Source of the DNA: an uncultured Rhizobium sp.
GTDB lineage: Bacteria; Pseudomonadota; Alphaproteobacteria; Rickettsiales; UBA1997
Direction of reading: 5' to 3'
Assembly: GCA_964444545.1 (NCBI GenBank)
Contig: CAYUHG010000003.1
Coordinates: forward strand, 36,106-100,105
DNA: 64,000 nucleotides
Part shown: positions 11,001-57,833 of the stretch, in pieces
How the letters are laid out: the number at the start of each line of letters is the position of its first letter
Numbering within the stretch: position 1 is the stretch's first letter
Program-made: the position numbers and the translations under genes
Notes under the pieces: generated by a model
What the model saw: only the letters and a program-made list of their open reading frames with translations
Told to the model about the DNA's origin: nothing
The model's database searches: none

Positions 11001-11086
11001 GTAAGTAAGATGTTGAATCTTTGGTTTGCGAGCTACAATAAGGCCGGACAAACTACCCTACCCGCAACACAAAAATCAATTTTAAA

Positions 11087-28138: not shown

Positions 28139-29008
28139 ATGATTGCAGAAACATTTACGGCACTTATTACACCTTTCAAAAACGGCAAAATTGATGAAAA
28201 ATCTTTGGAAAAATTAGTTGAATTCCAAATTGCAAATGGTGTTGACGGAATTGTTCCTTGCGGCACAACTGGTGAGTCTCCAACTCTATCTCACGAAGAA
28301 CATAATTTGGTTATTGATCTGTGCGTTAAAATCGCCAATAAACGCGTAAAAGTTATGGCGGGAACTGGATCAAATTCTACTGCTGAAGCGATTGCTATGA
28401 CTAATCACGCTAAAGAAATCGGCGCTGATTCTTGTTTGATTGTTGCTCCTTACTACAACAAACCAACCCCAGAAGGTGTTTATCAACATTTCAAAGCTTT
28501 AAACGAATGTGATATCCCTTTAATCGTTTACAACATTCCGGGACGTTCAGTAATTAATATCTCTGACGAAAATTTGGCGCGTATTGCTGAGTTGAAAAAT
28601 GTTGCCGGAATTAAAGATGCAACTGGCGATTTAGCTCGTGTTGCTAGCTTGCGCTTGTTGATCAAAAAACCATTTTCTTATTTGTCAGGCGAAGATGCTA
28701 CTGTTGTTGGATTCAACGCTATGGGCGGCAACGGTGTGATTTCAGTTACTTCAAATATCGCACCAAAATTAGTTTCTGACTTACAAAAATTTACTGCTAA
28801 AGGCGATTTCAAATCTGCTTTAGAAATCCAAGACAAACTTACCAGCCTTCACGCTGCAATGTTTTGCGAAACCAATCCAATTCCAATTAAATATGCTGCA
28901 AGCTTGATGGGATTGTGTAACGGTGAAATTCGTCTTCCTTTAGTTGAGCCTTCTGCAGGTGCTAAAGCAAGAATCGAATCTGAAATGAAGAAATTAGGAC
29001 TTATTTAG
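28139..29008 (+). CDS. dapA: 4-hydroxy-tetrahydrodipicolinate synthase
   Basis: GIVPCGTTGESPTLS, YYNKP, YNIPGRS, and the Schiff-base Lys context GIKDATGD. Confidence 0.9.
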   Translation: MIAETFTALITPFKNGKIDEKSLEKLVEFQIANGVDGIVPCGTTGESPTLSHEEHNLVIDLCVKIANKRVKVMAGTGSNSTAEAIAMTNHAKEIGADSCLIVAPYYNKPTPEGVYQHFKALNECDIPLIVYNIPGRSVINISDENLARIAELKNVAGIKDATGDLARVASLRLLIKKPFSYLSGEDATVVGFNAMGGNGVISVTSNIAPKLVSDLQKFTAKGDFKSALEIQDKLTSLHAAMFCETNPIPIKYAASLMGLCNGEIRLPLVEPSAGAKARIESEMKKLGLI

Positions 29009-30263
29009 CTAAAGTAAGCTTTTCCAAAAAAGTTAAGCTATCCGACAAGCTATCATTTCCAATTTTTTCCGCAGCTTGAGCTAGGGTAATTTTTTCTTTG
29101 CTAAATATTCCCGCCTTTTGTTCTAACACCAATATTCCGTAAGCATTAAAAGATACGCCACTTTCAAACCTAATACGATCAGAAGATAAAGTTTCTTTGG
29201 TAAAACTTTTTATCACCGCTACCAAATCCACTGGCAAATTTTTTCCAGAGAAAAGATTTTTTATTTCTTTTTGATAAGATTCTAAAATAGCGATTATTTC
29301 CTTGTTGGAATGAGCTTTAGCAATTTTTATAGCTTCTTCAATATTACCAATTCCCCACTGTAACAAAAGTGATAGAACTTCTTTTTTCCCTTTCGAAGCA
29401 GCCAAATATAAAATATCGTGACCAGAAGCAGTCTTGATATTTTTATCAGCACCATTTTCTAATAAAACTTGTGTTACCTTAACGTCACCAACGCTGATGC
29501 CAAATTGCAAAGCAGTTGTACCCGAAGTGGTTTTAAATTCTTTGTCAATTCCAGCTTTAATCAAAGCTAAGGTAACATCAGGAAATCCGCCAACTGCAGC
29601 ATAATGCAAAGCATTCATACAATGATTTTCTTCGGTAGTTTTCACATTTGTCTGCACTCTTTCTGCCAACAAAAATTCTACCACTGCTAAATGACCAAAC
29701 TCAGCTCCAACCAATAAAGGTGTTAATCCAAAAGATGTTTTTGCTTCTTTATCCGCACGATTAGCAATCAAAATTTTGATTACTTCTAAATGTCCACCTT
29801 TTGCTGCATAATGAATTGGTACCCATTCACGATCTTTTGGAGAAGATTTTGGGCTGATTTCAGCACCATTTTCCAATAAAACATTTACTACCTCAGCCCA
29901 ACCTCTTTTTGCCGCATGATGCAATGGCGTAAAAAAATTCTCATCACGAACAGAAGTATAAAACTTAGCATCGCGACCATCCATGGCTTTGCCAAAATCA
30001 CCATGATTAATATCCACCGTTACCAATTCTAAAACTCTTCTCAAAGATTCCGCAGCACCAAATTTTGCAGAAATATGCAAAATATTATTTCGCGGTTCAG
30101 CCAAAATATTTTTTACCTCTTCGCCATCCATTTTTGTCAGAATGTCGACATAATTGGCGATCAAGCTTCTTACTGTATCAAGATTCTCGAGGGAATTTTT
30201 TAAAATGATTTTGCCGGAAAATTCAGCAATTTTATCAGTAATTATGCTTAGTTCTTGATTCAT
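29001..30263 (-). CDS. Ankyrin-repeat protein (about 6-7 repeats)
   Basis: Repeated TPLHHAAKRGWAEVVNVLLENGA, VPIHYAAKGGHLEVIKILIANRA, NALHYAAVGGFPDVTLALIKAG and similar. No signal peptide is obvious. Confidence 0.8.
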   Translation of the reverse strand: MNQELSIITDKIAEFSGKIILKNSLENLDTVRSLIANYVDILTKMDGEEVKNILAEPRNNILHISAKFGAAESLRRVLELVTVDINHGDFGKAMDGRDAKFYTSVRDENFFTPLHHAAKRGWAEVVNVLLENGAEISPKSSPKDREWVPIHYAAKGGHLEVIKILIANRADKEAKTSFGLTPLLVGAEFGHLAVVEFLLAERVQTNVKTTEENHCMNALHYAAVGGFPDVTLALIKAGIDKEFKTTSGTTALQFGISVGDVKVTQVLLENGADKNIKTASGHDILYLAASKGKKEVLSLLLQWGIGNIEEAIKIAKAHSNKEIIAILESYQKEIKNLFSGKNLPVDLVAVIKSFTKETLSSDRIRFESGVSFNAYGILVLEQKAGIFSKEKITLAQAAEKIGNDSLSDSLTFLEKLTLAK

Positions 30264-36064: not shown

Positions 36065-36427
36065 TTATCTTTTTTCCATCAACTCTTCGTTGATGAATTC
36101 TACTACCAGCTGCAATTCACTTTTTACCTTTTGCATTAACGCATTTTTTTGTTCAGCTGTTTCTTCTGGATGATTTTGTGCATATTCCAAAACATTCGCC
36201 AACTCTAAGGCACCAATCGAAGCAGCTGCACCTTTAAAAGCGTGCGAAGACATATACCAAGAGTTGTCGTTTGCCACTTTTATTGCCTCTTGCATTTTTT
36301 CAATATTGCGATGGGCATTTTCAATAAAAATAGCGAATAATTCTTTCTCAAACTCGAAATCATTTTCAATGATGCTTCTTAGAAACTCTATATCGATAAC
36401 CTTTTTCGACTTTGAATCAGTAACCAT
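36065..36427 (-). CDS. Stand-alone histidine phosphotransfer (Hpt) protein
   Basis: 120 aa, four-helix pattern with the phospho-His motif SHAFKGAAASIGA. Confidence 0.8.
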   Translation of the reverse strand: MVTDSKSKKVIDIEFLRSIIENDFEFEKELFAIFIENAHRNIEKMQEAIKVANDNSWYMSSHAFKGAAASIGALELANVLEYAQNHPEETAEQKNALMQKVKSELQLVVEFINEELMEKR

Positions 36428-39959: not shown

Positions 39960-42830
39960 TTGTCGACATCAAATCCGCAAAATATTTCTGGCTCAGAAAA
40001 CAATAACTCAAAACGTCAGGGTTTTTTGTTTCCTGTAAAAAAATTACGTCTTGGATCTTTTTGGGATAATATTTTTTACCAACTCACCATCATCTATTTT
40101 GGCAGAAATGAATATTACCAAGAAAAAATAGTCAGACGCAGCAACGACGATCCAAACTATCCAAGAAGATTTAACAAAATTTATAAACGTTACAAAAAAA
40201 TTCACCGACCAAAAAATAAAGTCGAAAGCAAAATGGACTTAGCGCAGTCCTACACAATTTTCTCCTGCGTTTTGTTGCTACTGATTCTAAGCTTACTAAC
40301 CATAAACACTTTCGTAGTTTATCGCGGATTTTGGTATAACCTCGACAATCAAGTTAAATTCCAAAGCGGCGTTATTGAAAAAGCCTCAACCTCTTTGATG
40401 GGTGCTGTAGATAACTATATCAACTATGTCGGCGACAAACTTCTTACTCTTAAAGGCGAGAAAGACAAAAACACAATCGCACACATTTTACAAAAAACTC
40501 TAAACCGTGATGCGCTGCAAAAAAACGTCTCTTCATGGATTAACATTAGCTTCGTCAACAATGATGGTAAAGTAATCATCACTTCTGATGAAGGAGTTTT
40601 AAAAACACCAATTGATCCAAACGGTTATTTTCCTGTGCGTGAAGCAAAACAGAAAAATGCTTGGCGCTTAAAAGTTGGGCAACTCACTCACATCGAAACT
40701 GACATCGCTTCTTATAACATGCTTCCAGTAGCGATGCGTATCGACTATGACGATTTGAAACCAATCGGAACTTTCATCGCACAACTTCCAACCGAAGTTA
40801 TTCAAAGACAAATCGATTGGGTTTTCGGTGATGAAGATATTTGCTACATTGTAATCGACGATCATTTCGACATGCTGGCACATTCGGCAAGCTTTGATCC
40901 TCAGGCCTTTAACAAACCTTTCTTACGTTCGAAAAATTTCCTTCACGATATTTTTGATCAAACTTTGGCGAATGATTTTCTGCCTGAACGATTTAAAATG
41001 GGCGAATGTGTATTTACTTATTCACAAAAATCTGTCGGATATCACCTCGCCACACTTACTGGCTATCATCAAAAGAAATCTTGGAAAAATCTTACCTTCC
41101 AACTTTTGATTTCAGTAGGTCAATCTGCCGCCGTAGCATTTCTTTTCATGACAACAATTTTCATTTTCAAGAGAGTGAAAATTGGACCATTCGTAACTGA
41201 ATTAATTAAAGCTCGTATCGCTGCCGAAGCTGCCAGTGTAGCGAAAAGCCAATTCCTTTCTAACATGTCGCACGAGTTGCGAACTCCGATGAACGGAATT
41301 ATCGGTATGAGTCAAGCTTTGAAAGATTCCGGTAAATTAGGTGATGAGGAACAAGATCAAATTAACACTATTTATCGCTCTTCCGATGCACTTTTGATTA
41401 TCCTAAACGACATTCTGAATTTCTCTAAAATCGAAGCCAAGAAAGTTGATCTCGAACAAATCAATTTCAATCTACGTTCATTGGTTGAAGACATCGCAGA
41501 TTTAATGTCAGTTACTGCCAACAATAAAGGTTTGGAAGTGATCGTTGATATCAGCAAAGAATTGCCAGAAAACCTGATTGGCGATCCGGGAAGAATTCGT
41601 CAAATCACTACTAACTTAGTAAATAACGCCATCAAATTTACTTCTTACGGACAAATTTTGATTCAGATCAAATTAGATAGAGTTGAGAACGACAAATATT
41701 TCGTAAACTTCAACATAAAAGACAGTGGCATCGGTATTGATCCAGCAAAGATCGGAACCATGTTCACTAAATTTACACAAGCCGACATGTCGACCACCCG
41801 AAAATATGGCGGAACTGGTTTAGGACTTTCAATTTGCAAAGAATTAACTGAATTGATGCACGGTCAAATTGGTGTCGTCAGCGACTTTGGACAAGGTTCA
41901 AATTTCTGGTTCACTTTGCCGTTACCAAAATCTGAAAGCGAAGCACAAGACTTATTCATCGAACAGAAAAAACAATTAGCCGGCCGCAAAGTTGCAGTTG
42001 TTGAAGACAACATTATCGCCAAAAAAGTTTTGGAAGGAAATCTCAGCGACTTACAAATGACTCACTGCGTTATCAGCACCCATGACATCGATTCTGCAGA
42101 AGATAAAATTAATTTTGCCGTCAGTGAACTAGAAAAATTTGCTGGATGTGAAGCAATATTAATCAGTCACAACTCTTTTTTTGGAATCAATTCTCTCGAT
42201 TTGGCTGAACGTATTCGTAGTAATGAGAAATTGAAAAATATTCCTCTGATACTGGTAATTCTGCTGCAAGAAAAAATCAAAATTCCGCCAGAAAAATTAA
42301 AATTATTTGATCGCATCATTGCCAAACCAATCAAGATGAATCGCTTGCTACAAGCTTTGTTCTTCGCTCTCAAAATCACTTATTACGAAGAAGAAGGTGT
42401 GTTGATTGAGAAAGGTGTTGCCAAAATTGAAGATCAACAAACTAAAGGCATGAAATTGTTGTTGTGTGAAGACAATGAAGTAAACATGAAAGTTGCGACG
42501 ACAATTTTAAAACGTATGGCCTTCAATATTGAATTTGCTGAAAACGGTCAAGAAGCGCTCAACAAATTCCTTCACGTTAAATATGACGTAATTCTGATGG
42601 ATTGTATGATGCCAATTATGGATGGATTTGAAGCGACAAAACGTATTCGCGAAATCGAAAAAGAAACTGGCGCACAACCAACTTGTATCATTGCATTAAC
42701 CGCAAACGCTACGGAAGAAGATCGTAAAAAATGTTTAGAACTTGGCATGAACGATTTCGTTTCCAAACCAATCAAACGCGAATCAATCGAAGAAGTAATG
42801 AAACGCTGTTTTAAGAATAGTAAGCAGTAA
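39960..42830 (+). CDS. Hybrid sensor histidine kinase: periplasmic Cache-like domain, HisKA, HATPase_c, pseudo-receiver, receiver
   Basis: TM helices around res 100-120 and 385-405 flank a ~260-aa extracytoplasmic domain. H-box [19 protein letters not shown]-box [26 protein letters not shown], and the final receiver [13 protein letters not shown] ... SKP. The start is uncertain: TTG 39960 or ATG 40233. Confidence 0.85.
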
Positions 42831-44289: not shown

Positions 44290-46107
44290 CTAATGTGTTG
44301 TTGATTTAGTTAGATTCTTCGCAATCAGCTGCATCAAATAATCCGGCTCATCACCTTTGATAAAATAGTCGTTTATTGCAGAGTTTACACCACATTGATC
44401 ATCGTCACCACTAATTGCGATAATTGGGATCGCGTGCTTTTGATCAATTTTATTTTCCCTCTCCAAACTTCTAATTTCCGCTGCAACTTCATGACCATTT
44501 TTCAGCGGCATCGAAATATCAGTTAGAATCAAATCAAATTTTGATTCACCATTTTCGCTTAAATTATTTTTATAAATCTTCAGTAACTCATAACCGTTTC
44601 TGACCTTGGTAACATTCATGCCAAACGATGTCAGATTTGTTTCCATCGCAATCAAATTCAATTCGCGATCATCCGCAATCAACACTTCTTTTCCGCTTAA
44701 TAATTCGATTAAATCTGCACGAGATATTTTATTTTCTGGCAAAATTTCTGCTGGTTTTGAGCGAATATTTTTAACTTCAATTTGTGAAATTTGCGGAAAC
44801 AACAAACTAAATTTTGTCCAACCATTTTCTCTTTGGCCATTTTCTCTTTGGCCATTTTCTCTCCGGCTATTTTCACCTTCACCAAATTCTGATTCGCAAA
44901 TAATATCCCCACCAAATGCTTTCATATTGCGCCTACAAAATGCTAGCCCCAAGCCAGTTCCGCTTTTCTTTCCTGATGTATAAAAATCACCAAATAAATT
45001 TTCGATTTCTTGCGCAGCAATTCCCGGACCATTATCTTCAACGTAAATCACGTTATAGTTCTGACCCTTCAGAACTCTTTTTTCGATGCCGACTTTCACC
45101 ATCAAATTGGAAAATTGCGCATCGTAATAAAGTGAATTTTTCAAAAGATTATAAATGATGAATGACAGCCTGTCCGGCACAGCTTTGAAGAAAAAATCAT
45201 CCTGAGAATTTATCGATATCTTTACTTTTTTTCTTTCTTGCTGTTGTGCATAACCATATTGCTCAACAATCCGCGGCAAAATTTCACTCGCTCTTAAATA
45301 AGAAAATTCTGCAAAATTAATCGGTTTTTTCTGCAAGTCTGAGAGAGCAATATTAATAATTGCGTTGGCTTGTTTGATTGTGTCCGAAACCAACTGCATC
45401 GAATTTTCAATCTTAACAATATCAAAATTTTTAGAATTTTTGGCCTTCGATTTAACGTCCGAAATTGTTAAATTAATCGCATTCAAAGGATTACGCATTT
45501 CGTGAACTAGAGAAGCTGTAAGAGACAACATCTCACTATATAATTTTTCGATCGCCACCGCCCTGCCGCTATAATTAAAACACATGCCAACAAAGCCGCT
45601 GAAAACTATACAAATTAGATACGCTGAAACATCGAACTGCGGATGAAGATCAGAAAAATTTCCGCCACTAATCAAGAAAGCCAGAATCGCACCACCAACA
45701 CCAATCATTAAATCGATAAGATAAATCAACCAATTAGGCACACACAAAGCCAGCAACAAAACACCAAATATTTCCCAATAAAGCCAAACTTCGTGAAAGT
45801 TATTTTTCAGTAAATTGTAAGTGAAAACAAACGGCAAAGAATTGATCACCATCAAATGCCAATAAAATGGAAAATATTTTTCACGCAAGCGAGGCGACAA
45901 TAAATAATTTCCCGCCACACTAACACAAATTAGCGATGCCGCCAACCTTACATAAATATTTTCGTGAAGACCAAAAGCGTATTTATAAACAAAGTAAAAA
46001 ACAAAATGCGCAATCCCACCAGTCAAAGCAGCCGTAAGAATCGTCGGCTTACCAATCAAAGTTCCTTCTTGCCAGGCATTGATCAGAAACTGTTTTAGAT
46101 TCGACAC
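44290..46107 (-). CDS. Hybrid sensor kinase A: CqsS/LqsS-like multi-helix membrane sensor, kinase core, receiver
   Basis: GTG start. About 6 TM helices (YFPFYWHLMV, LPFVFTYNLLKNNFHEVWLYWE), H-box LVHEMRNPLNAI, IYNLLKNSLYY, GTGLGLAFCRRNMKAFGGDIICES, WTKFSLLFPQ, receiver LILTDISMP. The CqsS-likeness is judged from remembered motifs. Confidence 0.75.
   Translation of the reverse strand: MSNLKQFLINAWQEGTLIGKPTILTAALTGGIAHFVFYFVYKYAFGLHENIYVRLAASLICVSVAGNYLLSPRLREKYFPFYWHLMVINSLPFVFTYNLLKNNFHEVWLYWEIFGVLLLALCVPNWLIYLIDLMIGVGGAILAFLISGGNFSDLHPQFDVSAYLICIVFSGFVGMCFNYSGRAVAIEKLYSEMLSLTASLVHEMRNPLNAINLTISDVKSKAKNSKNFDIVKIENSMQLVSDTIKQANAIINIALSDLQKKPINFAEFSYLRASEILPRIVEQYGYAQQQERKKVKISINSQDDFFFKAVPDRLSFIIYNLLKNSLYYDAQFSNLMVKVGIEKRVLKGQNYNVIYVEDNGPGIAAQEIENLFGDFYTSGKKSGTGLGLAFCRRNMKAFGGDIICESEFGEGENSRRENGQRENGQRENGWTKFSLLFPQISQIEVKNIRSKPAEILPENKISRADLIELLSGKEVLIADDRELNLIAMETNLTSFGMNVTKVRNGYELLKIYKNNLSENGESKFDLILTDISMPLKNGHEVAAEIRSLERENKIDQKHAIPIIAISGDDDQCGVNSAINDYFIKGDEPDYLMQLIAKNLTKSTTH
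44823..44882 (-). repeat. In-frame 15-bp tandem repeat encoding (RENGQ)n inside kinase A
   Basis: On the + strand: ccattttctctttgg x2, ccattttctctccgg, then a degenerate unit. Protein reads GENSRRENGQRENGQRENGWTKF. Confidence 0.85.
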
Positions 46108-46223: not shown

Positions 46224-47543
46224 ATGATCAATTTCGTAAAAAAAGCTTTTGCTGAAGGCACAAGTATAGAAAGATATAACATACTTGCCGCAGTTTTTTT
46301 AGGCTCACTTGCACATATGTCGCTGTGGTTTTTATACAGCTTTGTTTTTCCAATGAAGTTTGAGAGTTTTTATTTGAGATTATTTCTCTCAATTCTGTGC
46401 TCTGTAGCTTATTCTTACAAATATCTGCCACAAAAAATCAGAACTCACTATTTTCCAATTTATTGGCACTTCATGGTAATGATGGCTTTGCCTTGTCATT
46501 GCACGTTTCTTCTACTTATGAATGATTTTCATCCATCATATTTATATTGGGAAATTTTTTGTGTGGTCACCATGATAATTTATATACCACACTGGTTTGC
46601 TGCCCTGACAAATCTTTTTGTTTCTTTAGTTTTAGCAGTTGTTGCTTACTACATAATGTCTCCAGAACCATATTTGATAGGCCTTATTCATGGTTTTGAT
46701 TATGCGCCATATCTTTTGGTTTTTTCTTTTGCCACTTTTTCCAGTATGATTTTTTCTCATGCAAACAGAACTACCTGGCTGGAAAAACAACAAAAACAAC
46801 TAACCGCACTTGCCGGCTCGGTTGCTCATGAATTGCGCAATCCACTTGGCGTAATCAACTCGGCACAAACGCAAATCAATTTAGTTTCTCGCACTGTCAA
46901 ATCCGAAAATTTAGACAAGTTTAAAGACAAAATCCAAAACCTCGCGCACATCATCGCTGAATCTGTAGTTCAGGCCAACGACATCATCAACCTCACCTTG
47001 TCTGACGTTACGGGAAAAAAATTCAGCTCTGATCAAATTATCAACATCGACGCCAAAACTGTGATCAATGAAATAGTCGAGAAATTTGGTTACGAAAATT
47101 CTGAGCAAAAAAATATCATAAAAATAAAGATCGACTCCTCCAACAGCTTCAACTTCAAAGCCAACCATGAACGCTTCAGCTGCATCGCTTCCAACCTAAT
47201 CCAAAACTCTCTTTATTACCTCAAAGATTTTGCAAACCTTAACATCACAATCGGCACCGAGCAAAAAGATTTCTTAGGCCAAAAATACAACGTAATCTAC
47301 TTCCTAGACAACGGACCAGGAATCAAAACCGAAAACCTCAACAACATCTTCAATGACTTCTACACCGAAGGGAAAAATAACGGAACAGGGTTGGGTTTGT
47401 CTTTCTGTAAACGTAACATGAAAGCGTTTGGCGGAGACATCATCTGCGAATCACAATTCGGTAACGTATCAAACGGCAAAAGGGAAAATGGTTGGACGAA
47501 ATTTAGTTTGTTGTTTCCGCAAGTTTTTTATTCAACTCCATAA
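46224..47543 (+). CDS. Sensor kinase B: CqsS/LqsS-like membrane sensor and kinase core, no receiver
   Basis: N-terminal YNILAAVFLGSLAHMSLWFLYSFVFPMKFESFYLR, YFPIYWHFMV, LMNDFHPSYLYWE. H-box AGSVAHELRNPLGVI, GTGLGLSFCKRNMKAFGGDIICES, WTKFSLLFPQ. Confidence 0.75.
   Translation: MINFVKKAFAEGTSIERYNILAAVFLGSLAHMSLWFLYSFVFPMKFESFYLRLFLSILCSVAYSYKYLPQKIRTHYFPIYWHFMVMMALPCHCTFLLLMNDFHPSYLYWEIFCVVTMIIYIPHWFAALTNLFVSLVLAVVAYYIMSPEPYLIGLIHGFDYAPYLLVFSFATFSSMIFSHANRTTWLEKQQKQLTALAGSVAHELRNPLGVINSAQTQINLVSRTVKSENLDKFKDKIQNLAHIIAESVVQANDIINLTLSDVTGKKFSSDQIINIDAKTVINEIVEKFGYENSEQKNIIKIKIDSSNSFNFKANHERFSCIASNLIQNSLYYLKDFANLNITIGTEQKDFLGQKYNVIYFLDNGPGIKTENLNNIFNDFYTEGKNNGTGLGLSFCKRNMKAFGGDIICESQFGNVSNGKRENGWTKFSLLFPQVFYSTP
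46809..47526 (+). repeat. Copy 1 of a ~720-bp near-identical direct repeat (kinase core of B)
   Basis: Aligns colinearly with 52842-53574 at an offset of 6033 nt. By eye there is no difference over 46947-47317. The identical antisense ORFs in the track (46911-47168 and 52977-53201) confirm this. Confidence 0.85.
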
Positions 47544-47827: not shown

Positions 47828-48796
47828 ATGCAAATCGCAGCTCGTGTTGAATCAAATTACTGTGATCGTAATTTTGTACATAATTTAAGCAAAAATATAA
47901 AAAGTTTGAGCTTTTCTGAAATTTTTTTATTTGCTTTAAAACAGGCAAAAAAAGTCGAAATATCTGAGGTACTTAAAAAAATATGTGTTTCACCTCCATA
48001 TTTTGCATTTCAGGAAATCTATCGATACGAATCTTTTCTGATAGCTCCTATTACTCCACAACAAGTAATAGAGTTTGAAAGCACTCCAATGTCTTCCGCT
48101 GAAGCTGGTAGACACCTAGCAATATTGGGAAGCTGTTCTTTAGCTATTGATGAAGTTGAAAAAAATTATTATTTAGCTCACAAAGCTCTTAAAAAAATAG
48201 GATCTGATTTCAAAAACACTGAAAAACTATATGTTGTTGCCTGCCCTAGTTTATCAGAAAATGACAAGGGTTCGGCATCTTCTGCTTATACAGCTTTAGT
48301 TAATCAAAACGGAGACATAATATTTGAAATGGATATCCTATTCCAGAAAGTTTCAGTCAGACTTTTTAACAGAATATTCAAAGAGCATCTAAGAGAAACG
48401 CAATCTATTGACTACAATCCTTACGAGAAAGTTGTGCGTTTAATAAATATCACGGAGACTAATTCTGGAATCAAAGCTGAACTACCATTAATGAACGACT
48501 CAGAATGTTCTGGTCATTTTGATGGGGCTCCTATGTTACCAGTTGGAACTATGTCTTACATAATTACAAATCATATTGGTAATTTTCTTAGAAAGATTGA
48601 TGGACAATCAAATGGTAGATATTCATTAGTTAGTGCTGATTTAGAACTATTTGAACCAACAAATATAAGAAAAAGAGAATTCGTAGAAATAAATTATGGT
48701 GGAAAAATTGATAACGTTCACAATATCTCATGGGTTGTCAGAGGAGAATCCGGAAAAGAAAGAAATAGAATGCAGTTATTTTTTACCCATAAGTAA
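47828..48796 (+). CDS. Hypothetical protein with FabA/FabZ/AfsA-like hot-dog signature (possibly double hot-dog)
   Basis: GGGA lies 7 nt upstream of the ATG. The C-terminal half has CSGHFDGAPMLPVGTMSYIITNHIG (compare FabZ GHFPxxPVMPGV). The N-terminal half has AEAGRHLAILGSCSLAI. No other family recognised. Confidence 0.4.
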   Translation: MQIAARVESNYCDRNFVHNLSKNIKSLSFSEIFLFALKQAKKVEISEVLKKICVSPPYFAFQEIYRYESFLIAPITPQQVIEFESTPMSSAEAGRHLAILGSCSLAIDEVEKNYYLAHKALKKIGSDFKNTEKLYVVACPSLSENDKGSASSAYTALVNQNGDIIFEMDILFQKVSVRLFNRIFKEHLRETQSIDYNPYEKVVRLINITETNSGIKAELPLMNDSECSGHFDGAPMLPVGTMSYIITNHIGNFLRKIDGQSNGRYSLVSADLELFEPTNIRKREFVEINYGGKIDNVHNISWVVRGESGKERNRMQLFFTHK

Positions 48797-48823: not shown

Positions 48824-51439
48824 TTGTTGGTCGAAAAAATAGAGTACAATAAATATAATGTACTTGCTCTAGGGTTTCTTGCCACACTAGGACATCCTTC
48901 ATTTTGGATTATTTACACATACATTATTCCTCAAAAGTTTGAGAGTTTATATCTCAGAGGCTTTGGTTTTCTAAGCTGTCTAATCCTACTGCTTTTAGTT
49001 ACCTTCAAAAAGCATTTTGGCAGAGCTGAGATTTGTTACTGGATATTGTGTCTAGTATATAATCTCCCCTTCTTTTTCACAGTTACCCTAATAAACAATG
49101 ATTTTAGTGCTGTTTGGCTTGCGGCGGAAGTGGTGATGTTTGTTGTGATGATAATGGCTGTAGAAGGGTTATTAACGGCGATTTTTCTGATATTACTAGG
49201 AATAGTATCTGCTGTAGTTTTTTGTTCACAGTTTTATCCAGAAAATACGATATATCATCAAGTTATATTTGATATCATACCAATCTCTTTTTTTGGCATC
49301 GCAACTGCTGCAATATTCGGATATAGTAACGTCCAGGGTATGTCGATTAGCAAAGATGTAAAATATAAAAATGCCACCAACCTTCTTAAATCACTAGCTG
49401 GGTCAATTGCACATGAGATTAGGAATCCTCTCAATACAATAGATTTTGTTAGTTCACAGATGAATGATTTGCTAAAGAATGATCATAACTTAACGCAAGT
49501 AGAAGAAAAAATACTGTCTTTCAACTCTCAGATTTCAGATGCGGTCTCGAGCTCCAATAGGATCATAAATATGATACTAAGTGACTTGAGAGATTCTCCA
49601 ATTAGTGAACAAGATTTTTCTTATTTAAGTTCACAAGAAATTTTACATAAAATTATCAACAAATATGGCTATAAAACTACTGAAGAACGTAATAAAGTAA
49701 TATTTGATACATCTCTAACCGACAAAGGTTTTATCCTCCGAGTAGTAGAAGAACGCTTTACATTTGTAGTATACAATCTTCTCAAAAATGCACTTTACTA
49801 CTTAAAAGAATATCCAGATTCGACAGTTAGAATTGGTGCAGAATCTAAAGAAATAAATAATGTTATTTGGAATGTAATTTACATTCATGACACTGGTCCA
49901 GGAATTCCTAAAGATATAATTCCAAAACTATTTAATGACTTCTACACCTCTGGCAAAAAAGATGGAACAGGTCTCGGTTTGTCATTTTGTAAACGTAACA
50001 TGAAAGCATTTGGTGGCGACATCATCTGCGAATCAGAGCTTGGAAAATGGACTAAATTTAGTCTTTTATTTCCGAAGGTAGATCAGGATCTAATCAATCA
50101 AGAAGCCAATCAAATTTCTGACATAAACTCCGACGATAAAACGAAGAACAAACCATTCATCGCAATAGATAAAGATTCGGGAAAAACCAAAATTCTTTTG
50201 GTTGATGACGAGCAAACTAATCTTTTGATCACCAAGGCGATGATTGAAAAAAATCTCAATATTTTATGTGAGTTGGCTCATAGTGGAAAAGAGGCAATTG
50301 AGATTGAATCGCACCACATCGAGGATCATAAATTAATCATCACCGATATTCAGATGATGGAAACAAATGGAATTAGCGCTGCTAAAAATATCCGCGCTTT
50401 CAACAAAGAAATCCCGATTATTGCCCTTACCTCACTTGAATATGAAGATTTACAAAAAAACGATCACAATTATTTCAGCGATCATTTAAGCAAACCAGTG
50501 TCTGGGCATATTCTTTATCGAACTATTTCCAAATTTATTCCCGACTTAAAAGACAATATTGATTATCTAGGCGTTCCAGATCAGTACCTTCCTGACATCA
50601 AATCGAAGAAAATTTTGATCGTTGACGACCAAGAGCTGAATCTTTCGATTTTCTCGAAAAAAATGCAAAATCTTGGCATGGAAGTAACTAAAGCCACTGA
50701 TGGAAAAGAGATGGTGGAAGTATATCAAAATAGCTTAATTGAAGTCTTGGCAGAGGATGCTGAAAAAATCATTAAATCACAATTCGACATCATCGTAACT
50801 GACGTAAACATGCCAATCATGTCAGGAACTGATGGTGCAAAAAAAATTAGAGAAATCGAATCATCGAAAAACATTTCTTACAAAAATCGTATTCCAATTA
50901 TTGCTTTAAGTGGCGATGGCACTGAAGAAGACATAAAACATTTCTTCGAAGCCGGAATGAGCGACTATTTCATCAAAGGTTCGGACGTAAATAAGTTGAT
51001 CAAGATCATTACGATTTATCTCAATCCGGATAAGTCTTACAAAAGCTTGAATCACAAAAAAGAAGATGAAGATCTACACCATAAAATTGCTAACCAAATC
51101 AGTCATGAAGAAGACAATGACCAAATTCTTAATCAGGAAAAAATCATGCAATTCAGCAACGAAGATCGTCATGAGTTTCTGAAAATATTTTTAGAAGGCA
51201 GTCAAACTCAATTGAATAAGATTAAGCAAACTATTAGCGCTAACGACAATAAAGAGCTCTCTATCGCTTTACATGCTTTAAAAGGAATATCCGGCAACAT
51301 CGGCGCGGAGAGAGTATTCGCAGTGGTAACCAGAACTGATTATAATCTAAAAAATAACATCGCGGTTGGCGAAAATTGGTACGAAGAATTAAATACCGAA
51401 TATGAAAAGCTAAAATCGGAGATATCGAAGATTTTATAA
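48824..51439 (+). CDS. Hybrid sensor kinase C: CqsS/LqsS-like sensor, kinase core, two receivers, C-terminal Hpt
   Basis: TTG start with agagga 7 nt upstream. YNVLALGFLATLGHPSFWIIYTYIIPQKFESLYLR, AGSIAHEIRNPLNTI, GTGLGLSFCKRNMKAFGGDIICES, receivers LIITDIQM and IIVTDVNMP, Hpt motif LHALKGISGNIGA. Confidence 0.8.
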   Translation: MLVEKIEYNKYNVLALGFLATLGHPSFWIIYTYIIPQKFESLYLRGFGFLSCLILLLLVTFKKHFGRAEICYWILCLVYNLPFFFTVTLINNDFSAVWLAAEVVMFVVMIMAVEGLLTAIFLILLGIVSAVVFCSQFYPENTIYHQVIFDIIPISFFGIATAAIFGYSNVQGMSISKDVKYKNATNLLKSLAGSIAHEIRNPLNTIDFVSSQMNDLLKNDHNLTQVEEKILSFNSQISDAVSSSNRIINMILSDLRDSPISEQDFSYLSSQEILHKIINKYGYKTTEERNKVIFDTSLTDKGFILRVVEERFTFVVYNLLKNALYYLKEYPDSTVRIGAESKEINNVIWNVIYIHDTGPGIPKDIIPKLFNDFYTSGKKDGTGLGLSFCKRNMKAFGGDIICESELGKWTKFSLLFPKVDQDLINQEANQISDINSDDKTKNKPFIAIDKDSGKTKILLVDDEQTNLLITKAMIEKNLNILCELAHSGKEAIEIESHHIEDHKLIITDIQMMETNGISAAKNIRAFNKEIPIIALTSLEYEDLQKNDHNYFSDHLSKPVSGHILYRTISKFIPDLKDNIDYLGVPDQYLPDIKSKKILIVDDQELNLSIFSKKMQNLGMEVTKATDGKEMVEVYQNSLIEVLAEDAEKIIKSQFDIIVTDVNMPIMSGTDGAKKIREIESSKNISYKNRIPIIALSGDGTEEDIKHFFEAGMSDYFIKGSDVNKLIKIITIYLNPDKSYKSLNHKKEDEDLHHKIANQISHEEDNDQILNQEKIMQFSNEDRHEFLKIFLEGSQTQLNKIKQTISANDNKELSIALHALKGISGNIGAERVFAVVTRTDYNLKNNIAVGENWYEELNTEYEKLKSEISKIL

Positions 51440-51452
51440 TATTCCAAAACAA

Positions 51453-53579
51453 ATGTTCTCTGTCGTTCCAGCTGTCGTTGCTCTCTATTTTCTTCTTGTT
51501 GGGATTTTTGTAGTTCGGCAGAATCGAGGCAATCTTTTAGCTAAAACATTCTGTGCGATATGTGTGACTACTTTTAGTTGGCAGTTTGTTTGGTCCATTC
51601 TTTATCAAACTAAAAACCCTGAAAATGCTTATCTTTTAACTAAGATTGGTTGGATCTTTATACTTTTTTTACCTACTACAGCCTATCATTTTCTTATAAC
51701 CTTAAGTAACAAAAAATCTGAACTTAAGTTCGTTTATTTTTCTTATTTAGTCTCAGCACTTTTTCTATTCACCCTTCCTTCTGATTTAATGCTTGCTGGT
51801 GTTTATCAGTACTACTGGGGCTTTTATCCAAAAGCTGGAATACTACATCCCCTTCACGTTCTACAAACTGTTATTGTGGTGCTTAGAGGTTTATACGTAA
51901 CTTATCTGAAACAAAAAACATGCGATGATTACAAAACCAAATCACAATTACGATATTGTGTAGTCGCAATTTTCATATTCTTGATTGCCGCAATCGATTA
52001 TTTAGGAAATTATGGTCTAAATGTTTATCCATTCGGAATCGCTTTTCTCAGCACTTCGCTCACAATAATTTGCTACGCAATCGTACAACACCGCATCCTC
52101 GACTTAGATCGCGTTTTCATCCTTATCACAGCTCGAATCGTAATCTATTTATGTTTCTTAGGATTATTCGTGTGCTATGGATTTTTCTTTCTCGAAAATG
52201 ATGAATGGCAAAATTTCTATTTCTTCATTGCTGTCGCCGCAATTTTAGTATTGGTGTGCGAGACTTATTCCTACGTTATCCGCAGAGTCGAAAATCTTTT
52301 AAAAGTTATAATGATTCGACGTAAAGAAAGTGAAGATTGGAAAGATCTGCTGATTCGTCAATTAAATGAATCTTATTCTCTCGATCAGCTATATCACAAT
52401 ATGGAGTGGTTCTCGAAAAATGTTCTCGAAGTAAATCTAACCGGATTTTTTATCAGAAGTGATTTGCGCGGTAATGACAATTCGTCACATTATTTTGACT
52501 TGCTCAATCGCAATTATTTTGCTGGTTTTAGCCGAAGTTTTGCTAGCGAAGTACTTAAATCTAAAGCTCCAATTGAGAGAATTGATTACCCGAAAGAGTT
52601 AGAAGATCTAAAATCCAGCAAGGTTTTTGTACCTTTTATTCGCAATCAAGAAATCTCCGGATTTATGTTGGTTGATGCCAAAAAATCACTACAATTTCAA
52701 CACTACGAAATCTTTAATTTGTTGATTAGCCAAGTTGCTTTAACAGTTGATCGGATCTTGGCTTATCAAGAAATTTCACTGCAGAAACAAGAATTACAAA
52801 AGCAGGAATTTATTCGTGAAAAAGCCGAATCTTTAAGATCACTTGCTGGCTCAGTTGCTCATGAATTGCGCAATCCACTTGGTGTGATTAACTCGGCGCA
52901 GACGCAAATCAACTTGGTTTCTCGCAGTGTCAAATCCGAAAATTTAGACAAGTTTAAAGACAAAATCCAAAACCTCTCACACATCATCGCTGAATCTGTA
53001 GTTCAGGCCAACGACATCATCAACCTCACCTTGTCTGACGTTACGGGAAAAAAATTCAGCTCTGATCAAATTATCAACATCGACGCCAAAACTGTGATCA
53101 ATGAAATAGTCGAGAAATTTGGTTACGAAAATTCTGAGCAAAAAAATATCATAAAAATAAAGATCGACTCCTCCAACAGCTTCAACTTCAAAGCCAACCA
53201 TGAACGCTTCAGCTGCATCGCTTCCAACCTAATCCAAAACTCTCTTTATTACCTCAAAGATTTTGCAAACCTTAACATCACAATCGGCACCGAGCAAAAA
53301 GATTTCTTAGGCCAAAAATACAACGTAATCTACTTCCTAGACAACGGACCTGGAATCAAAACCGAAAACCTACAAAACATCTTCAATGACTTCTACACCG
53401 AAGGAAAAAACAACGGAACAGGACTGGGCTTGTCTTTCTGTAAACGTAACATGAAAGCCTTCGGCGGAGACATCATCTGCGAATCGCAACTCGGCAACGA
53501 AATAAATGGCCAAAGAGAAAATGGCCAAAGAGAAAATGGATGGACGAAATTTAGTTTGTTGTTTCCGCAAGTTTCATAA
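51453..53579 (+). CDS. Sensor kinase D: 7-TM (HisKA_7TM-like) sensor, uncharacterised linker domain, then a kinase core nearly identical to B
   Basis: The N-terminal ~280 aa form about 7 helices unrelated to the A/B/C/E sensors. Res ~290-450 are soluble (GAF/PAS-like?). From LAGSVAHELRNPLGVIN to the end it is nearly identical to kinase B. Confidence 0.8.
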   Translation: MFSVVPAVVALYFLLVGIFVVRQNRGNLLAKTFCAICVTTFSWQFVWSILYQTKNPENAYLLTKIGWIFILFLPTTAYHFLITLSNKKSELKFVYFSYLVSALFLFTLPSDLMLAGVYQYYWGFYPKAGILHPLHVLQTVIVVLRGLYVTYLKQKTCDDYKTKSQLRYCVVAIFIFLIAAIDYLGNYGLNVYPFGIAFLSTSLTIICYAIVQHRILDLDRVFILITARIVIYLCFLGLFVCYGFFFLENDEWQNFYFFIAVAAILVLVCETYSYVIRRVENLLKVIMIRRKESEDWKDLLIRQLNESYSLDQLYHNMEWFSKNVLEVNLTGFFIRSDLRGNDNSSHYFDLLNRNYFAGFSRSFASEVLKSKAPIERIDYPKELEDLKSSKVFVPFIRNQEISGFMLVDAKKSLQFQHYEIFNLLISQVALTVDRILAYQEISLQKQELQKQEFIREKAESLRSLAGSVAHELRNPLGVINSAQTQINLVSRSVKSENLDKFKDKIQNLSHIIAESVVQANDIINLTLSDVTGKKFSSDQIINIDAKTVINEIVEKFGYENSEQKNIIKIKIDSSNSFNFKANHERFSCIASNLIQNSLYYLKDFANLNITIGTEQKDFLGQKYNVIYFLDNGPGIKTENLQNIFNDFYTEGKNNGTGLGLSFCKRNMKAFGGDIICESQLGNEINGQRENGQRENGWTKFSLLFPQVS
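52842..53574 (+). repeat. Copy 2 of the ~720-bp near-identical direct repeat (kinase core of D)
   Basis: See 46809-47526. Contains one extra 15-bp unit relative to copy 1. Confidence 0.85.
53493..53540 (+). repeat. In-frame 15-bp tandem repeat in kinase D
   Basis: ggcaacgaaataaat (degenerate), then ggccaaagagaaaat x2 (53508-53537). Protein reads GNEINGQRENGQRENGWTKF. Confidence 0.8.
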
Positions 53580-53737: not shown

Positions 53738-55567
53738 GTGTTTTTAGAGTACTTTGCGAACAAATTATCCAGCACCACTAAACTAGCAAAGTACAACATA
53801 ATAGCTCTTGGTGTAATAGGAACTTTTGGTCATCCATTGTACTGGGCGATATGGACTTATATTTTTCCTCAGCCATACGAAAATGTTTTTATAAGATTTT
53901 CTGCCGCAATTGCGTGCTTAGTTCTTTTATTGAACGAATATTTACCAGAAAGAACCAAAAGATATTTTCCAACCTATTGGTTTTGTGCTGTGATTTATGC
54001 ATTACCATTTTTGTTCACAGTGCATTTGATAAAGAATAATTTTTCGGACATCTGGATGATGTGCGAAGTTGGAATGGGTTTTATGGTTATTATATTCATT
54101 CCCGATGCATTATTGATGCTTTTAAATATTATACTGGGAGTAGTTCTGGCCATATGGTTTTGCAATATCTTCCCAGAAACATCTTCCGTAGTTTTAGAAA
54201 ATGGTGTCAGATTTTTTCCAGGAGATAAATATATTCCGATATGGACTTTTTTATTAGTTGCTGGCCCAGTTTTTAGTAACAGTGGAATCCTTGGCGCAAC
54301 ATATGAAAGGGCTAACAAAGTTCTAAGATATTCTTTAGCCATCGCCGGCTCAATCGCCCATGAATTACGTAATCCAATCAACACAATAAACTTAACTGGA
54401 ACACAGATTAAGAATTTGTTGAATCAAAGTTCTGATTTTAACAACAAAGAAAAAATCAGCTCTCTCACCGATCAAATTTCAGATTCAATTTCTGAGGCGA
54501 ATAACATCATCAATATTATCTTGAGCGATTTAAGCGAAAATCCGATTGATGACAAAGATTTTGTATTTTTACAGCCCAATTTGATAATTCCAAAAATAGT
54601 TCAGAACTACAGCTACAAGAATCAAGACGAGAAAAATTGCGTTCAACTTATCGTTAGTCCAAGTAATGATTTTACAATTAAAGCCGTTCCCGAGCGCTTC
54701 ACTTTTATCATCTATAATTTGCTCAAAAACGCTCTTTATTACTTGAATCAATATACTGATTTAAAAATCACAATTGGTGCCGAGGTCAGAGAAATCAAAG
54801 GAGTAAAATGGAATACAATTTACGTCCACGATACTGGCCCGGGAATTTCTCCAGAAATTATTTCGAAACTGTTTGATGATTTTTACACCAACAACAAAAA
54901 AGACGGAACCGGTTTGGGTTTGTCTTTTTGCAAACGCAACATGAAAGCGTTCGGCGGCGACATCATCTGCGAATCGCAATTCGGCAACGGAGCAAATTGT
55001 TGGACGAAATTTAGTTTATTGTTCCCACAAATTCAGCTTCCTACAGATCATAAATTTGACAATAAAATAACCCTTCAACCAACCAAAAACCCAAACAATT
55101 CAATGACTAATTTAAACACAAAAAATATTTCCGATTTTTCCGAGCTGCTCGCCAATAAAAAAATTCTTATTGCCGACGATCACGATCTCAGTCTTAAAAC
55201 GATGCAAGGTTGGTTAGAATGTTATGGCTGTGAAGTTTCTACAGCATTGAATGGCGAAGATTTAGTGCGCGCTTACAAAAACAATCTGGATCAAAATTAT
55301 AAATCAAATTTCGATCTGATTATTACTGATTTTTGTATGCCAATTAAAAATGGCGATGAAGTTGTTAGAGAAATTCGCGAACTGGAAAAGCAAAATAATG
55401 TTTCATCATGCAACGCCATTCCGATAATTGTTGTCAGCGGCAATGATGATAGAGAAACTATCAATACACTTCAAAAATTCCACTCTACCAAAAATTTCGT
55501 TAAAGGAGATAATTTAGAAAATCTTCTCGAAATTATCCTAGATCTTACAACGATCAGACAAATCTAA
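53738..55567 (+). CDS. Hybrid sensor kinase E: CqsS/LqsS-like sensor, kinase core, receiver
   Basis: GTG start. YNIIALGVIGTFGHPLYWAIWTYIFPQPYENVFIRF, YFPTYWFCAV, LPFLFTVHLIKNNFSDIWMMCE, AGSIAHELRNPINTI, GTGLGLSFCKRNMKAFGGDIICES, receiver LIITDFCMP. Confidence 0.8.
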   Translation: MFLEYFANKLSSTTKLAKYNIIALGVIGTFGHPLYWAIWTYIFPQPYENVFIRFSAAIACLVLLLNEYLPERTKRYFPTYWFCAVIYALPFLFTVHLIKNNFSDIWMMCEVGMGFMVIIFIPDALLMLLNIILGVVLAIWFCNIFPETSSVVLENGVRFFPGDKYIPIWTFLLVAGPVFSNSGILGATYERANKVLRYSLAIAGSIAHELRNPINTINLTGTQIKNLLNQSSDFNNKEKISSLTDQISDSISEANNIINIILSDLSENPIDDKDFVFLQPNLIIPKIVQNYSYKNQDEKNCVQLIVSPSNDFTIKAVPERFTFIIYNLLKNALYYLNQYTDLKITIGAEVREIKGVKWNTIYVHDTGPGISPEIISKLFDDFYTNNKKDGTGLGLSFCKRNMKAFGGDIICESQFGNGANCWTKFSLLFPQIQLPTDHKFDNKITLQPTKNPNNSMTNLNTKNISDFSELLANKKILIADDHDLSLKTMQGWLECYGCEVSTALNGEDLVRAYKNNLDQNYKSNFDLIITDFCMPIKNGDEVVREIRELEKQNNVSSCNAIPIIVVSGNDDRETINTLQKFHSTKNFVKGDNLENLLEIILDLTTIRQI

Positions 55568-55574
55568 AATCATC

Positions 55575-56942
55575 ATGAGAATGCTGGCAGCACAAGAATC
55601 TTGGCCATTTAGAAGCTATTTCATTTTTCTTATTCTCACCAGTTTTCTTGGAATTATTGCCTTAGGATTGGCAATTTTTTTGTTAGAAAAATCGGCTGCA
55701 ACTCCAGCAATTTTAGCCATCTATTTTGCTTTTTTCGTAATGGTTGGAACTTTTTTTACGGTTCTTTTCACCTTCAGAAAAAAAATATCGGAAGTAGCAA
55801 AAAAAGAACTGCTATTAAGTCAATTTTTACAAAGAAGTAATCTCTCTAAAACCACTTTTATCAAGTCTGCCAGCCATGATATTAAAAATTATGTATTCGG
55901 AATTTCTGGCCTACTTAAATTGATTTTACACAACAAAACTGAAGCAGAAATTAAAGCCAATGACGATCTAAAAATGATCGAAGCGCTGCAGCTTAAGTCG
56001 GAAGAATTAATGCGTTTTGTCGAAGATTTATTTGATACCAATCAAGATGAATGTGATGATCTAGATCCAAGCTACAGAAGGTTGTGTAACGTTATTGATC
56101 TAGCCCAAAGAATGGTGATTCTGAACAAAAATTTCGCCATGAAAAATCGAGTTAATTTGGAATTCGACAACAAAACCAATAACCAAATTGTTAAGGTTGA
56201 ATGTAACACCAAGCGCTTGAAACAAATTCTGCAAAATCTGATTCGTAACGCCATAAAATCTAGTGCCATCAATGACCTGGTAATCGTACAAATCTCGGCG
56301 ATTAATAATCATGTGCAAATTTCAGTAATCGATCAAGGCAACGGCAACAGCACAGATTCAATCAAAGATGCAAATTTAGATCAGCTCGATCCTCACAATT
56401 TGAGCTTTAATAACATGAGAAATTTGATCGAATCTTATCACGGCAAATTCGAGATAAATGCCGTAAAAGGTTATGGAACTGAAGTAAAAATTAATATTAT
56501 TGCGGCTCAAGATCACAACAGCTCTGAGCAAAAATTATACTCAGAAAATAGTATTGATAACAGCTTCGAAAACAAAGCAGTTCTGGTTGCAGAAGATAAT
56601 TTAATCACCAGTAAAGTTATAACTTTTCTGCTGCGCAAAATGGGTTTCAAAGTTAAGCATGTTGATAACGGCGCGGAAATTTTAGAACAACTCGACAATC
56701 AACATTTCGACCTAATTTTTCTCGACATCAATATGCCAAAACTTGGTGGATTTGAAACGGCTAAAACTATTCGCGAAGGCAAAGTTTTTAAGAGATTCAA
56801 AAATTACAACATTCCAATTATCGCAATCAGCACCGAGAAACAGCAGCTTTCTGACCTTAAAAATCACGGCATTAACATGATGCTTGGTAAACCATTTTCC
56901 GAAAAAGAGTTGATCGATTTTGTGATGGAATATGTGAAATAA
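55575..56942 (+). CDS. Hybrid kinase-like protein F: two TM helices, H-box, HATPase_c lacking a G2 box, receiver
   Basis: H-box FIKSASHDIKNYVFGISG, N-box LIRNAIKSS, G1 DQGNG. No GxGLGL-type G2 box is present; PHNLSFNNMRNLIESYHG sits in its place. The receiver has LIFLDINMP and LGKP. Confidence 0.7.
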   Translation: MRMLAAQESWPFRSYFIFLILTSFLGIIALGLAIFLLEKSAATPAILAIYFAFFVMVGTFFTVLFTFRKKISEVAKKELLLSQFLQRSNLSKTTFIKSASHDIKNYVFGISGLLKLILHNKTEAEIKANDDLKMIEALQLKSEELMRFVEDLFDTNQDECDDLDPSYRRLCNVIDLAQRMVILNKNFAMKNRVNLEFDNKTNNQIVKVECNTKRLKQILQNLIRNAIKSSAINDLVIVQISAINNHVQISVIDQGNGNSTDSIKDANLDQLDPHNLSFNNMRNLIESYHGKFEINAVKGYGTEVKINIIAAQDHNSSEQKLYSENSIDNSFENKAVLVAEDNLITSKVITFLLRKMGFKVKHVDNGAEILEQLDNQHFDLIFLDINMPKLGGFETAKTIREGKVFKRFKNYNIPIIAISTEKQQLSDLKNHGINMMLGKPFSEKELIDFVMEYVK

Positions 56943-56954
56943 ATTAGAACTAGA

Positions 56955-57833
56955 ATGAAAACTTCACTACCAACGCAATCACAAATTCATCAAGAAGCCA
57001 TCCAAGAAATCGCTGATAATATTTTAAAAGCCGGAAAAGATAAAATTGCTTTCATAATTTTATTCGGAGCTTTCGCCCGTGGTAGCTGGATTAGCTATCG
57101 TTATACCGAAAATGATGCAGTTTACGAATATACTTCTGATTATGATTTTTTGATTATCACCAAAAGCGGAAAACAAGCCAACAGCAGCGCCGGATTTGAC
57201 TTGGAGAGGAAAATCAAAAAAGAAATCGATAACTCAACTAAGGTTAAAAAAACTCATCGCGTTCACATCATTATCGAGTCAATTAATCGCGTTAATGAGG
57301 AGTTGGAAAAGTCACAATATTTTTTCTCCAGCATTAAAGAAGAAGGAATTATGCTTTATAATTGTGGCGAATATCAGCTGTCTAATTCTGAAAGTTTAAA
57401 TTCAGAACAACGCATCAAGATTGCTCGCGAGACTTATCAACATTGGTTTGAAAGTGCTGATGGATTTTTGATCGATTACGAAAATGCACGATCACGCAAT
57501 GATTTCAAAAAGTCGGCTCTTTATTTGCATCAAGCAACTGAAAGTCTGTATAACTGTACTTTACTTACCCTTGGAGGGTATAAGCCAAAATCTCATGATC
57601 TTGAAGAATTAAATCAGCTTTGTGCTGTTTATTCGGAAGATTTTCTCACTCTTTTTCCCAAAGCCAGCTCAGAACAAAAACAATGTTTTTCGTTGCTACA
57701 AAAATCATATATTGGATCGCGATATAACAAAGATTTCCAAGTTACCAAACAACAACTCGAATATTTGTTTTGCCAGATCAAGAAACTGCAAACAGTTGTG
57801 AAGAAAATTTGTGAAGAACGAATTGGTGTGTGA
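56955..57833 (+). CDS. Fused nucleotidyltransferase (MNT-like) plus HEPN domain protein
   Basis: N-terminal NTase motif ILFGAFARGSW ... SDYDFLIIT (GxxxRG ... DxD). C-terminal HEPN-like ALYLHQATESLYNCTLLTLGGYKPKSHDLEEL and YIGSRYNKDF. Confidence 0.65.
   Translation: MKTSLPTQSQIHQEAIQEIADNILKAGKDKIAFIILFGAFARGSWISYRYTENDAVYEYTSDYDFLIITKSGKQANSSAGFDLERKIKKEIDNSTKVKKTHRVHIIIESINRVNEELEKSQYFFSSIKEEGIMLYNCGEYQLSNSESLNSEQRIKIARETYQHWFESADGFLIDYENARSRNDFKKSALYLHQATESLYNCTLLTLGGYKPKSHDLEELNQLCAVYSEDFLTLFPKASSEQKQCFSLLQKSYIGSRYNKDFQVTKQQLEYLFCQIKKLQTVVKKICEERIGV

Follow-up and report, generated by a model that had tools for sequence, protein, structure and literature searches.

Probable gene conversion between two sensor histidine kinase genes in a kinase array of an uncultured Rickettsiales bacterium

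A stretch of 64,000 nucleotides (nt) from contig CAYUHG010000003.1 (assembly GCA_964444545.1; an uncultured Rhizobium sp. that GTDB places in Rickettsiales, UBA1997), which we refer to as the window, carries an array of at least six LuxN/CqsS-type kinase genes, among them the tandem paralogs B and D (Table 1). We consider it likely that real ectopic gene conversion has copied a segment of the B gene into D, inside a DHp+CA module that both genes encode, and that this event is superimposed on an older duplication.

The module copies of B and D align colinearly in a global alignment, at an offset of 6033 nt that becomes 6048 nt past an additional 15-bp unit in D. Over 720 aligned nt they differ at 33 sites, and there is one 15-bp indel. 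Homology begins at LAGSVAHE, seven residues ahead of the phospho-acceptor His, and stops 3–17 nt short of the two stop codons; the sensor parts of B and D upstream of the module do not align. Within the module, B 46947–47317 and D 52980–53350 show zero differences over 371 nt. The nearest upstream difference is a GCG/TCA codon (Ala/Ser) at 46944–46946, and the flanks carry 10 differences in 46807–46895 and 14 in 47318–47466. Both copies are under purifying selection: 20 of the 24 differing codons are synonymous and four are non-synonymous. Divergence at third codon positions is 0.22–0.30 in the flanks, and there are no differences at the 123 third positions of the core; the flank value is close to the divergence between lineages and would mark the older duplication. 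The original prediction, made from the letters of the window and their open reading frames (ORFs), had described about 720 bp of colinear near-identity running from the H-box helix to the stop region behind unrelated sensors, with this shift of offset, this clean core, this codon just upstream of it and scattered, mostly synonymous flank differences; pairwise alignment reproduced all of these features, the core base for base.

The clean core is far longer than the density of differences would lead one to expect. A run of 371 nt was reached in none of 20,000 permutations (maximum 232 nt; P < 5e-5; analytic value ~1.4e-9), a GENECONV-type excess that refutes an even spread of the differences. 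The run is equally extreme when third codon positions are taken alone (123 of 240 sites clean; 0 of 20,000 permutations; ~8e-7), and protein-level constraint therefore does not account for it. Identity of the B and D modules is 95.4% in the window, against 93.2% where strains are unconverted; the unconverted pair is itself a mosaic, its longest identical run being 113 nt (P ~0.007).

Further evidence comes from sister loci, which were obtained through the protein database from very large, eukaryote-sized NCBI assemblies of one series (contig numbers above 1 million) in which the bacterium is a passenger. Our position-by-position comparison spans 36224–63579 (27.4 kb). Outside both modules, six assemblies, four of them with a D allele, match the window without a difference over this span; the exception is L012 (GCA_013565615), a slightly different strain. 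Window D differs from all four other D alleles at 15 sites, every one of them in 53133–53306, and at 15 of 15 it carries the base of B; the converted tract is seen in one of the five D alleles. Point mutation as the source of these 15 differences is ruled out by their clustering and by their identity to the paralog: the chance that 15 independent mutations would all give the paralog’s base is about (1/3)^15. B is the same at all 15 sites in six B alleles, and the transfer was therefore non-reciprocal. Furthermore, at 12 of the 15 (53255–53306) the lineages of L019 (~98% identity) and L018 (~91%) both have non-B states, so that the state of window D is derived and the transfer ran from B to D; L018 has B-type bases at 53133–53141. 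The tract is 174–371 nt long, depending on whether it is measured between the outermost diagnostic sites or between the nearest D-specific bases, at 52979 and 53351. The original prediction of a recent conversion patch on an older duplication is thus upheld by the 15 sister-strain sites, by outgroup polarity and by flank divergence.

We also observed that tract boundaries move among strains, a comparison that the original prediction had proposed: one patch lies in D of L007 and another in B of L012. The L007 D allele has B bases at 52977, 52979 and 53039, which define a second patch of 63–205 nt; its base at 53039 is the T allele borne by five of the six B copies. In L012, the B tail at 47429–47492 carries 13 bases of an L006-type D tail, and a novel T at 47430 makes a TGA codon that truncates B to 402 residues (L012:1826–3034, equivalent to window 46224–47432). 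Kinase A of L012 has five clustered single-nucleotide polymorphisms (window equivalent 44908–44953), for which a donor was looked for and not found.

Gene content varies as well. L006 (12146–13465) contains gene X, an extra CqsS-like kinase of 439 residues between D and E, and the window is without it. X is present on seven contigs in at least six assemblies (L014–L017 and L019 too), in five of them on short orphan contigs, often of 1.6–2.5 kb; a mis-join is ruled out by the unique sensor sequence of X and by this recurrence. The window-type D tail (from ~53412, second 15-bp unit included), together with the DNA downstream of it, matches the tail and downstream DNA of X and does not match the tail of L006 D, and the haplotypes therefore differ by unequal exchange within the CA-coding region. 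The 15-bp unit, AATGGCCAAAGAGAA (NGQRE), maps to the loop that leads into the last strand of the CA domain. Paralogs and strains differ in how many copies they have: two in D, two exact and one degenerate in A, one degenerate in B, two in X and one in L006 D. It is the extra unit in D that shifts the B–D offset. The same units occur in the inverted tail of kinase A, whose likeness to D 53504–53579, despite a module protein identity of ~49%, looks like another short conversion patch; this inverted pair is a potential substrate for inversion.

Locus L018 (GCA_013565655; 6870 nt, 91–94% nt identity) carries a D-type module fragment and an X-like kinase of 443 residues; the X-like kinase and an epimerase gene stand in place of the window’s B and the 322-residue ORF that follows it. 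For concerted evolution, the comparison between lineages could draw on this one module fragment, which is about as far from B as from D, and on gene X at the place of B. The segment comprising the D tail and X is 97.6% identical between L006 and L018, with flanks at 91%, which suggests exchange between lineages.

From these observations we infer the following course of events. B and D share one transmitter module, joined to unrelated sensors and with a background divergence of ~7% nt that is mostly synonymous; its source would be a partial duplication or a replacement of the module at an earlier time. In the window lineage, non-reciprocal homologous recombination, presumably RecA-dependent and acting between direct repeats 6 kb apart, would have copied 174–371 nt of B into D. 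Initiation would presumably lie in pre-existing identical stretches of 153 nt (52980–53132) and 44 nt (53307–53350), and the event would have produced the 371-nt identical run. Like events, with other end points and in both directions, would have occurred in sister strains, and gene X would be gained or lost by unequal exchange; the array would evolve by frequent recombination between paralogs in the 3' module.

Several observations weigh against such a conversion, and we set them out together with the possibility of an assembly artefact, in which the genome is unconverted and an assembler, a polisher or a mixed-strain path threaded B sequence through D. The converted allele is a singleton: it occurs in one assembly only, its protein on a single contig. 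Differences between assemblies all fall in the repeated modules, with none in 27 kb of unique DNA, and the series fragments and branches at the B/D repeat family and leaves orphan contigs there. GCA_013573075 has both a D–E contig without X and an orphan contig with the D tail and X, which points to mixed strains or to a skipped path. Moreover, at site 47006/53039, inside the identical tract, both copies carry D’s usual base. The tract consequently has 15 sites of B type and one of D type, a mixture that the collapse of variants into a consensus would give, and a single one-way event leaves this site unexplained unless B’s C is ancestral; that C may be an ancestral polymorphism or a product of reciprocal repair. 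Finally, recombination variants number four or five, and point differences across 27 kb number zero. This ratio of conversion to mutation is above the expectation for repeats that are ~7% diverged, as based on near-identical rRNA operons, which convert at 8.6e-6 per operon per donor per generation (PMC8022953). The high ratio could stem from mixed strains, from selection or from a recombination system of unusual activity.

An artefact nevertheless appears unlikely to us. In one sibling assembly, the overlap between two contigs is exactly 127 nt, and three orphan contigs equal the common D allele over exactly their first 127 nt; these overlaps and shared starts indicate that the sibling assemblies are de Bruijn graphs at k = 127. 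Since the longest identical stretch between unconverted B and D is 113 nt, they have no 127-mer in common: their paths never touch, and mis-threading is improbable. The right-hand switch in window D, which is B-like at 53306 and D-like at 53351, spans 45 nt and must therefore exist within single reads or k-mers. B and D were correctly kept apart in at least four assemblies of the series, the GCG/TCA codon has not been collapsed although it lies 59 nt from the next variable site, and the novel T at 47430 in the L012 patch has no source in a paralog. The branching of contigs in the sibling assemblies would reflect co-existing haplotypes. If the window contig came from the sibling pipeline too, these observations argue for a real recombinant. 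The B/D repeat family breaks and branches short-read assemblies, and allele calls in kinase arrays of this kind need long reads.

A more far-reaching proposal is that the array works as a recombination-driven cassette system, which reshuffles transmitter modules among differently gated sensors much faster than mutation alters them. It is prompted by the same count of four to five patches and exchanges against zero point differences in 27 kb, and by the 15-bp NGQRE repeat and near-identical tail that even the inverted kinase A has in common, a possible hotspot. We regard this as improbable; if true, the array would be to signalling what antigenic-variation cassettes are to surface antigens, and a host-associated population would gain standing diversity of signal wiring from it.

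The patch in D might instead be an allelic import, taken not from the resident B but from a co-resident strain whose D allele was already B-like. The 98% and 91% lineages do co-occur in the sample series, probably within samples; the D-tail+X segment of L006 is far closer to the 91% lineage than its flanks are; and L018 has the B-type bases mentioned above. However, over 371 nt the patch matches the resident B at every base, all 15 diagnostic sites included, all sampled foreign D-type sequences are non-B at 53255–53306, and a foreign B-like D would itself require a B-to-D conversion, so that we consider import very improbable. That there was no conversion at all, the module being strongly constrained or very recently duplicated and the other D alleles having diverged by mutation, is scarcely credible: purifying selection does act on the module, but the core is devoid of synonymous differences where the flanks are not, 15 clustered changes amid 27 kb of identity cannot be point mutations, and the non-B states are common to the outgroups.

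As to function, the patch introduces seven substitutions into D (P561S, H563Q, N603D, P605A, D606N, K608N and L618F), all of which concern surface residues of the CA domain, past the end of DHp and ahead of the G1 box, and none the DHp specificity region. The original prediction had also held that conversion keeps the phosphotransfer and ATPase modules of the two kinases identical, and presumably with them their partner specificity. This part of it was overstated. The tract does not reach the H-box helix (46807–46895), where nine of ten differences are synonymous, so that protein identity there stems from purifying selection; a tract found in one of five D alleles is a polymorphism, not a maintained state. 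The conversion was probably neutral or nearly so, and not a device for keeping partner specificity. There is support for the idea of a common partner. DHp residues have a role in partner choice, and because the DHp helices of B and D are near-identical in every strain, B and D may feed one downstream acceptor in a many-to-one arrangement. Such near-identity on unrelated sensors runs against the usual insulation of paralogs. Candidate acceptors would be the REC domains of neighbouring hybrid kinases, those of C in particular. A stand-alone Hpt protein of ~120 residues (~36068–36427, minus strand; motif HAFKGAAASIG), which has a DUF4154 protein and a TonB-dependent receptor as neighbours, might serve the array's hybrid kinases as a relay in the manner of LuxU.

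Table 1. Positions in the window of the array genes, the shared module, the converted tract and the 15-bp units
Feature	Position	Strand	Remarks
Kinase G	39960–42830	+	Cache, REC (ORF listing, domain scans)
Kinase A	44290–46107	−	Hybrid with REC; module paralog of B/D type, ~49% amino-acid identity to B/D
Kinase A tail, 73 nt	44785–44857	−	~95% nt identity to D tail, inverted; same 15-bp units
15-bp units in kinase A	44827–44871	−	
Kinase B	46224–47543	+	439-residue sensor histidine kinase, no REC; multi-transmembrane, possibly CqsS/LqsS-like N-terminus, then DHp+CA; patch donor
Shared DHp+CA module, B copy	46807–47526	+	H-box to last CA strand (alignments)
Mismatch-free tract, B side	46947–47317	+	371 nt
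Sole strain difference in B	47006	+	C in window (D’s base), T in five other B alleles
Degenerate 15-bp unit in B	47471–47485	+	
322-residue ORF between B and C	47828–48796	+	
Kinase C	48824–51439	+	Hybrid; two REC stretches, Hpt
Kinase D	51453–53579	+	708-residue sensor histidine kinase, no REC; PF16927 HisKA_7TM, further cytoplasmic domain, DHp+CA; patch recipient
Shared DHp+CA module, D copy	52840–53574	+	Alignments
Maximal converted tract in D	52980–53350	+	Bounded by D-specific bases at 52979 and 53351
Minimal converted tract in D	53133–53306	+	174 nt, 15 diagnostic sites
Two tandem 15-bp units in D tail (NGQRE NGQRE)	53505–53519, 53520–53534	+	AATGGCCAAAGAGAA
Kinase E	53738–55567	+	Hybrid with REC; module from B/D family
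Kinase F	55575–56942	+	REC

The assignment of B and D as kinases rests on motifs and domain models. HATPase_c of Pfam matches both at 1e-13, and its HisKA matches are weak, below the gathering score. The HELRNP H-box places the phospho-acceptor at His202 of B and His470 of D; in D the further boxes NLIQNS, DNGPGI, FNDFY and GTGLGL follow at residues 592, 630, 644 and 655, and with the H, N, G1, F and G2 boxes all present these proteins are of the HisKA type. The best NCBIfam match of the module is LuxN (NF041945), at 128.6 bits for B and 120.7 bits for D over the module region only, neither of which reaches the 1550-bit cut-off of that model. Kinases of the CqsS/LqsS type have an N-terminal sensor with six transmembrane segments that binds alpha-hydroxyketones. 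The first ~190 residues of B are hydrophobic, with at least three strong segments in a crude hydropathy scan, and match no dedicated model; the B sensor was aligned to that of X by eye only, and relatives of X are named CqsS by JGI. In D, about 170 further residues besides PF16927 HisKA_7TM precede the shared module. The full-length relatives of D (40–44% identity) are hybrid kinases that contain REC and in some cases Hpt; among relatives of X and D, the annotations are CqsS (JGI) and Legionella kinases (NCBI records). In a pairwise matrix, the B and D modules show 41–54% identity to all other paralogs as well as to relatives of D and X, and this matrix could not tell which sensor first owned the shared module.

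For the 322-residue ORF that separates B from C, which is kept in all sister assemblies, neither Pfam nor NCBIfam nor PDB sequences gave a match; as it has no detectable family, no LqsR-like partner could be proposed from it. Among the window ORFs of at least 150 residues that were scanned (about nine were not), there is no aminotransferase-type synthase like CqsA/LqsA and no LqsR-like protein, and for this reason we describe the kinases as of the CqsS/LuxN-module type and not as a defined quorum-sensing system. Directly 3' of the array, a protein that fuses a nucleotidyltransferase to HEPN is encoded at 56955–57833 (plus strand).

Regarding the bacterium itself, the kinase B protein has the same sequence on nine contigs in the protein database and HisRS on twelve; the nearest named relatives of the latter are metagenome-assembled genomes (MAGs) of Rickettsiales or ‘Proteobacteria’, at 81–86%. 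When the module protein was used as a query against a representative-genome collection, the only relatives were at 23–43% (an alphaproteobacterial MAG, the closest at 43%, and Tolypothrix). Elsewhere in the window, an ankyrin-repeat protein of 420 residues is encoded at 29001–30263 (minus strand); such proteins are typical of bacteria associated with eukaryotic hosts. Two adjoining ORFs of ~700 residues without a Pfam match lie at 6887–8962 and 8937–11051 (minus strand).

Ectopic conversion between bacterial paralogs is known from tufA/tufB in Salmonella and from the rRNA operons of E. coli (PMC5485169, PMC8022953). As in those systems, the B/D transfer is one-way and within a chromosome, and it leaves the donor as it was; the tract extends for a few hundred nt between differences that existed before, and close strains are polymorphic for the event. 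On the other hand, B and D are homologous in the 3' module only, their 5' sensor parts being unrelated; they are ~7% diverged where the classical pairs are ~1% diverged; and they are not kept uniform, most strains being unconverted.

For two-component proteins, the concept of domain shuffling is said to have been put forward by Alm et al. in 2006. Within-gene recombination in two-component families is established (bioRxiv 10.1101/2020.09.30.321588) and has elsewhere been mentioned as a possibility (PMC4603909). The B/D case resembles such shuffling in that a sensor and a transmitter of different histories are joined near the H-box, and in that lineage-specific paralogs exchange segments; it differs from the published examples, which are drawn from deep phylogeny, in that the exchange is polymorphic among near-clonal strains and that donor and recipient lie on one contig.

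Many-to-one kinase circuits are represented by LqsS and LqsT, which signal to LqsR in Legionella, and by LuxN, LuxQ and CqsS, which signal to LuxU in Vibrio; receiver-less kinases of the CqsS type occur in such convergent circuits (PMC5289986). The window likewise has several membrane kinases with a CqsS/LuxN module in one genome, some of them receiver-less as LqsS and LqsT are. Unlike those circuits, it lacks a CqsA/LqsA-type synthase and an LqsR-like regulator among its scanned ORFs, and the convergence of B and D on one partner, suggested by their near-identical DHp helices, is putative.

Recombination among outer-membrane-protein paralogs or antigenic-variation cassettes is also familiar from bab/sab of Helicobacter and pilE/pilS of Neisseria. 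Repeated, patchy conversions within a family that give rise to allelic mosaics in a population are common to these and to the array described here; its targets, however, are cytoplasmic signalling modules, with no silent cassettes and no sign of programmed initiation or of diversifying selection. The B/D case is a well-resolved new example of ordinary conversion, not a new kind of process, and it leaves the current understanding of that process unchanged. Its value lies in a conversion between histidine-kinase paralogs for which donor, recipient, direction and tract limits are resolved from natural strain variation, where exchange among two-component proteins has until now mostly been inferred from deep phylogeny.

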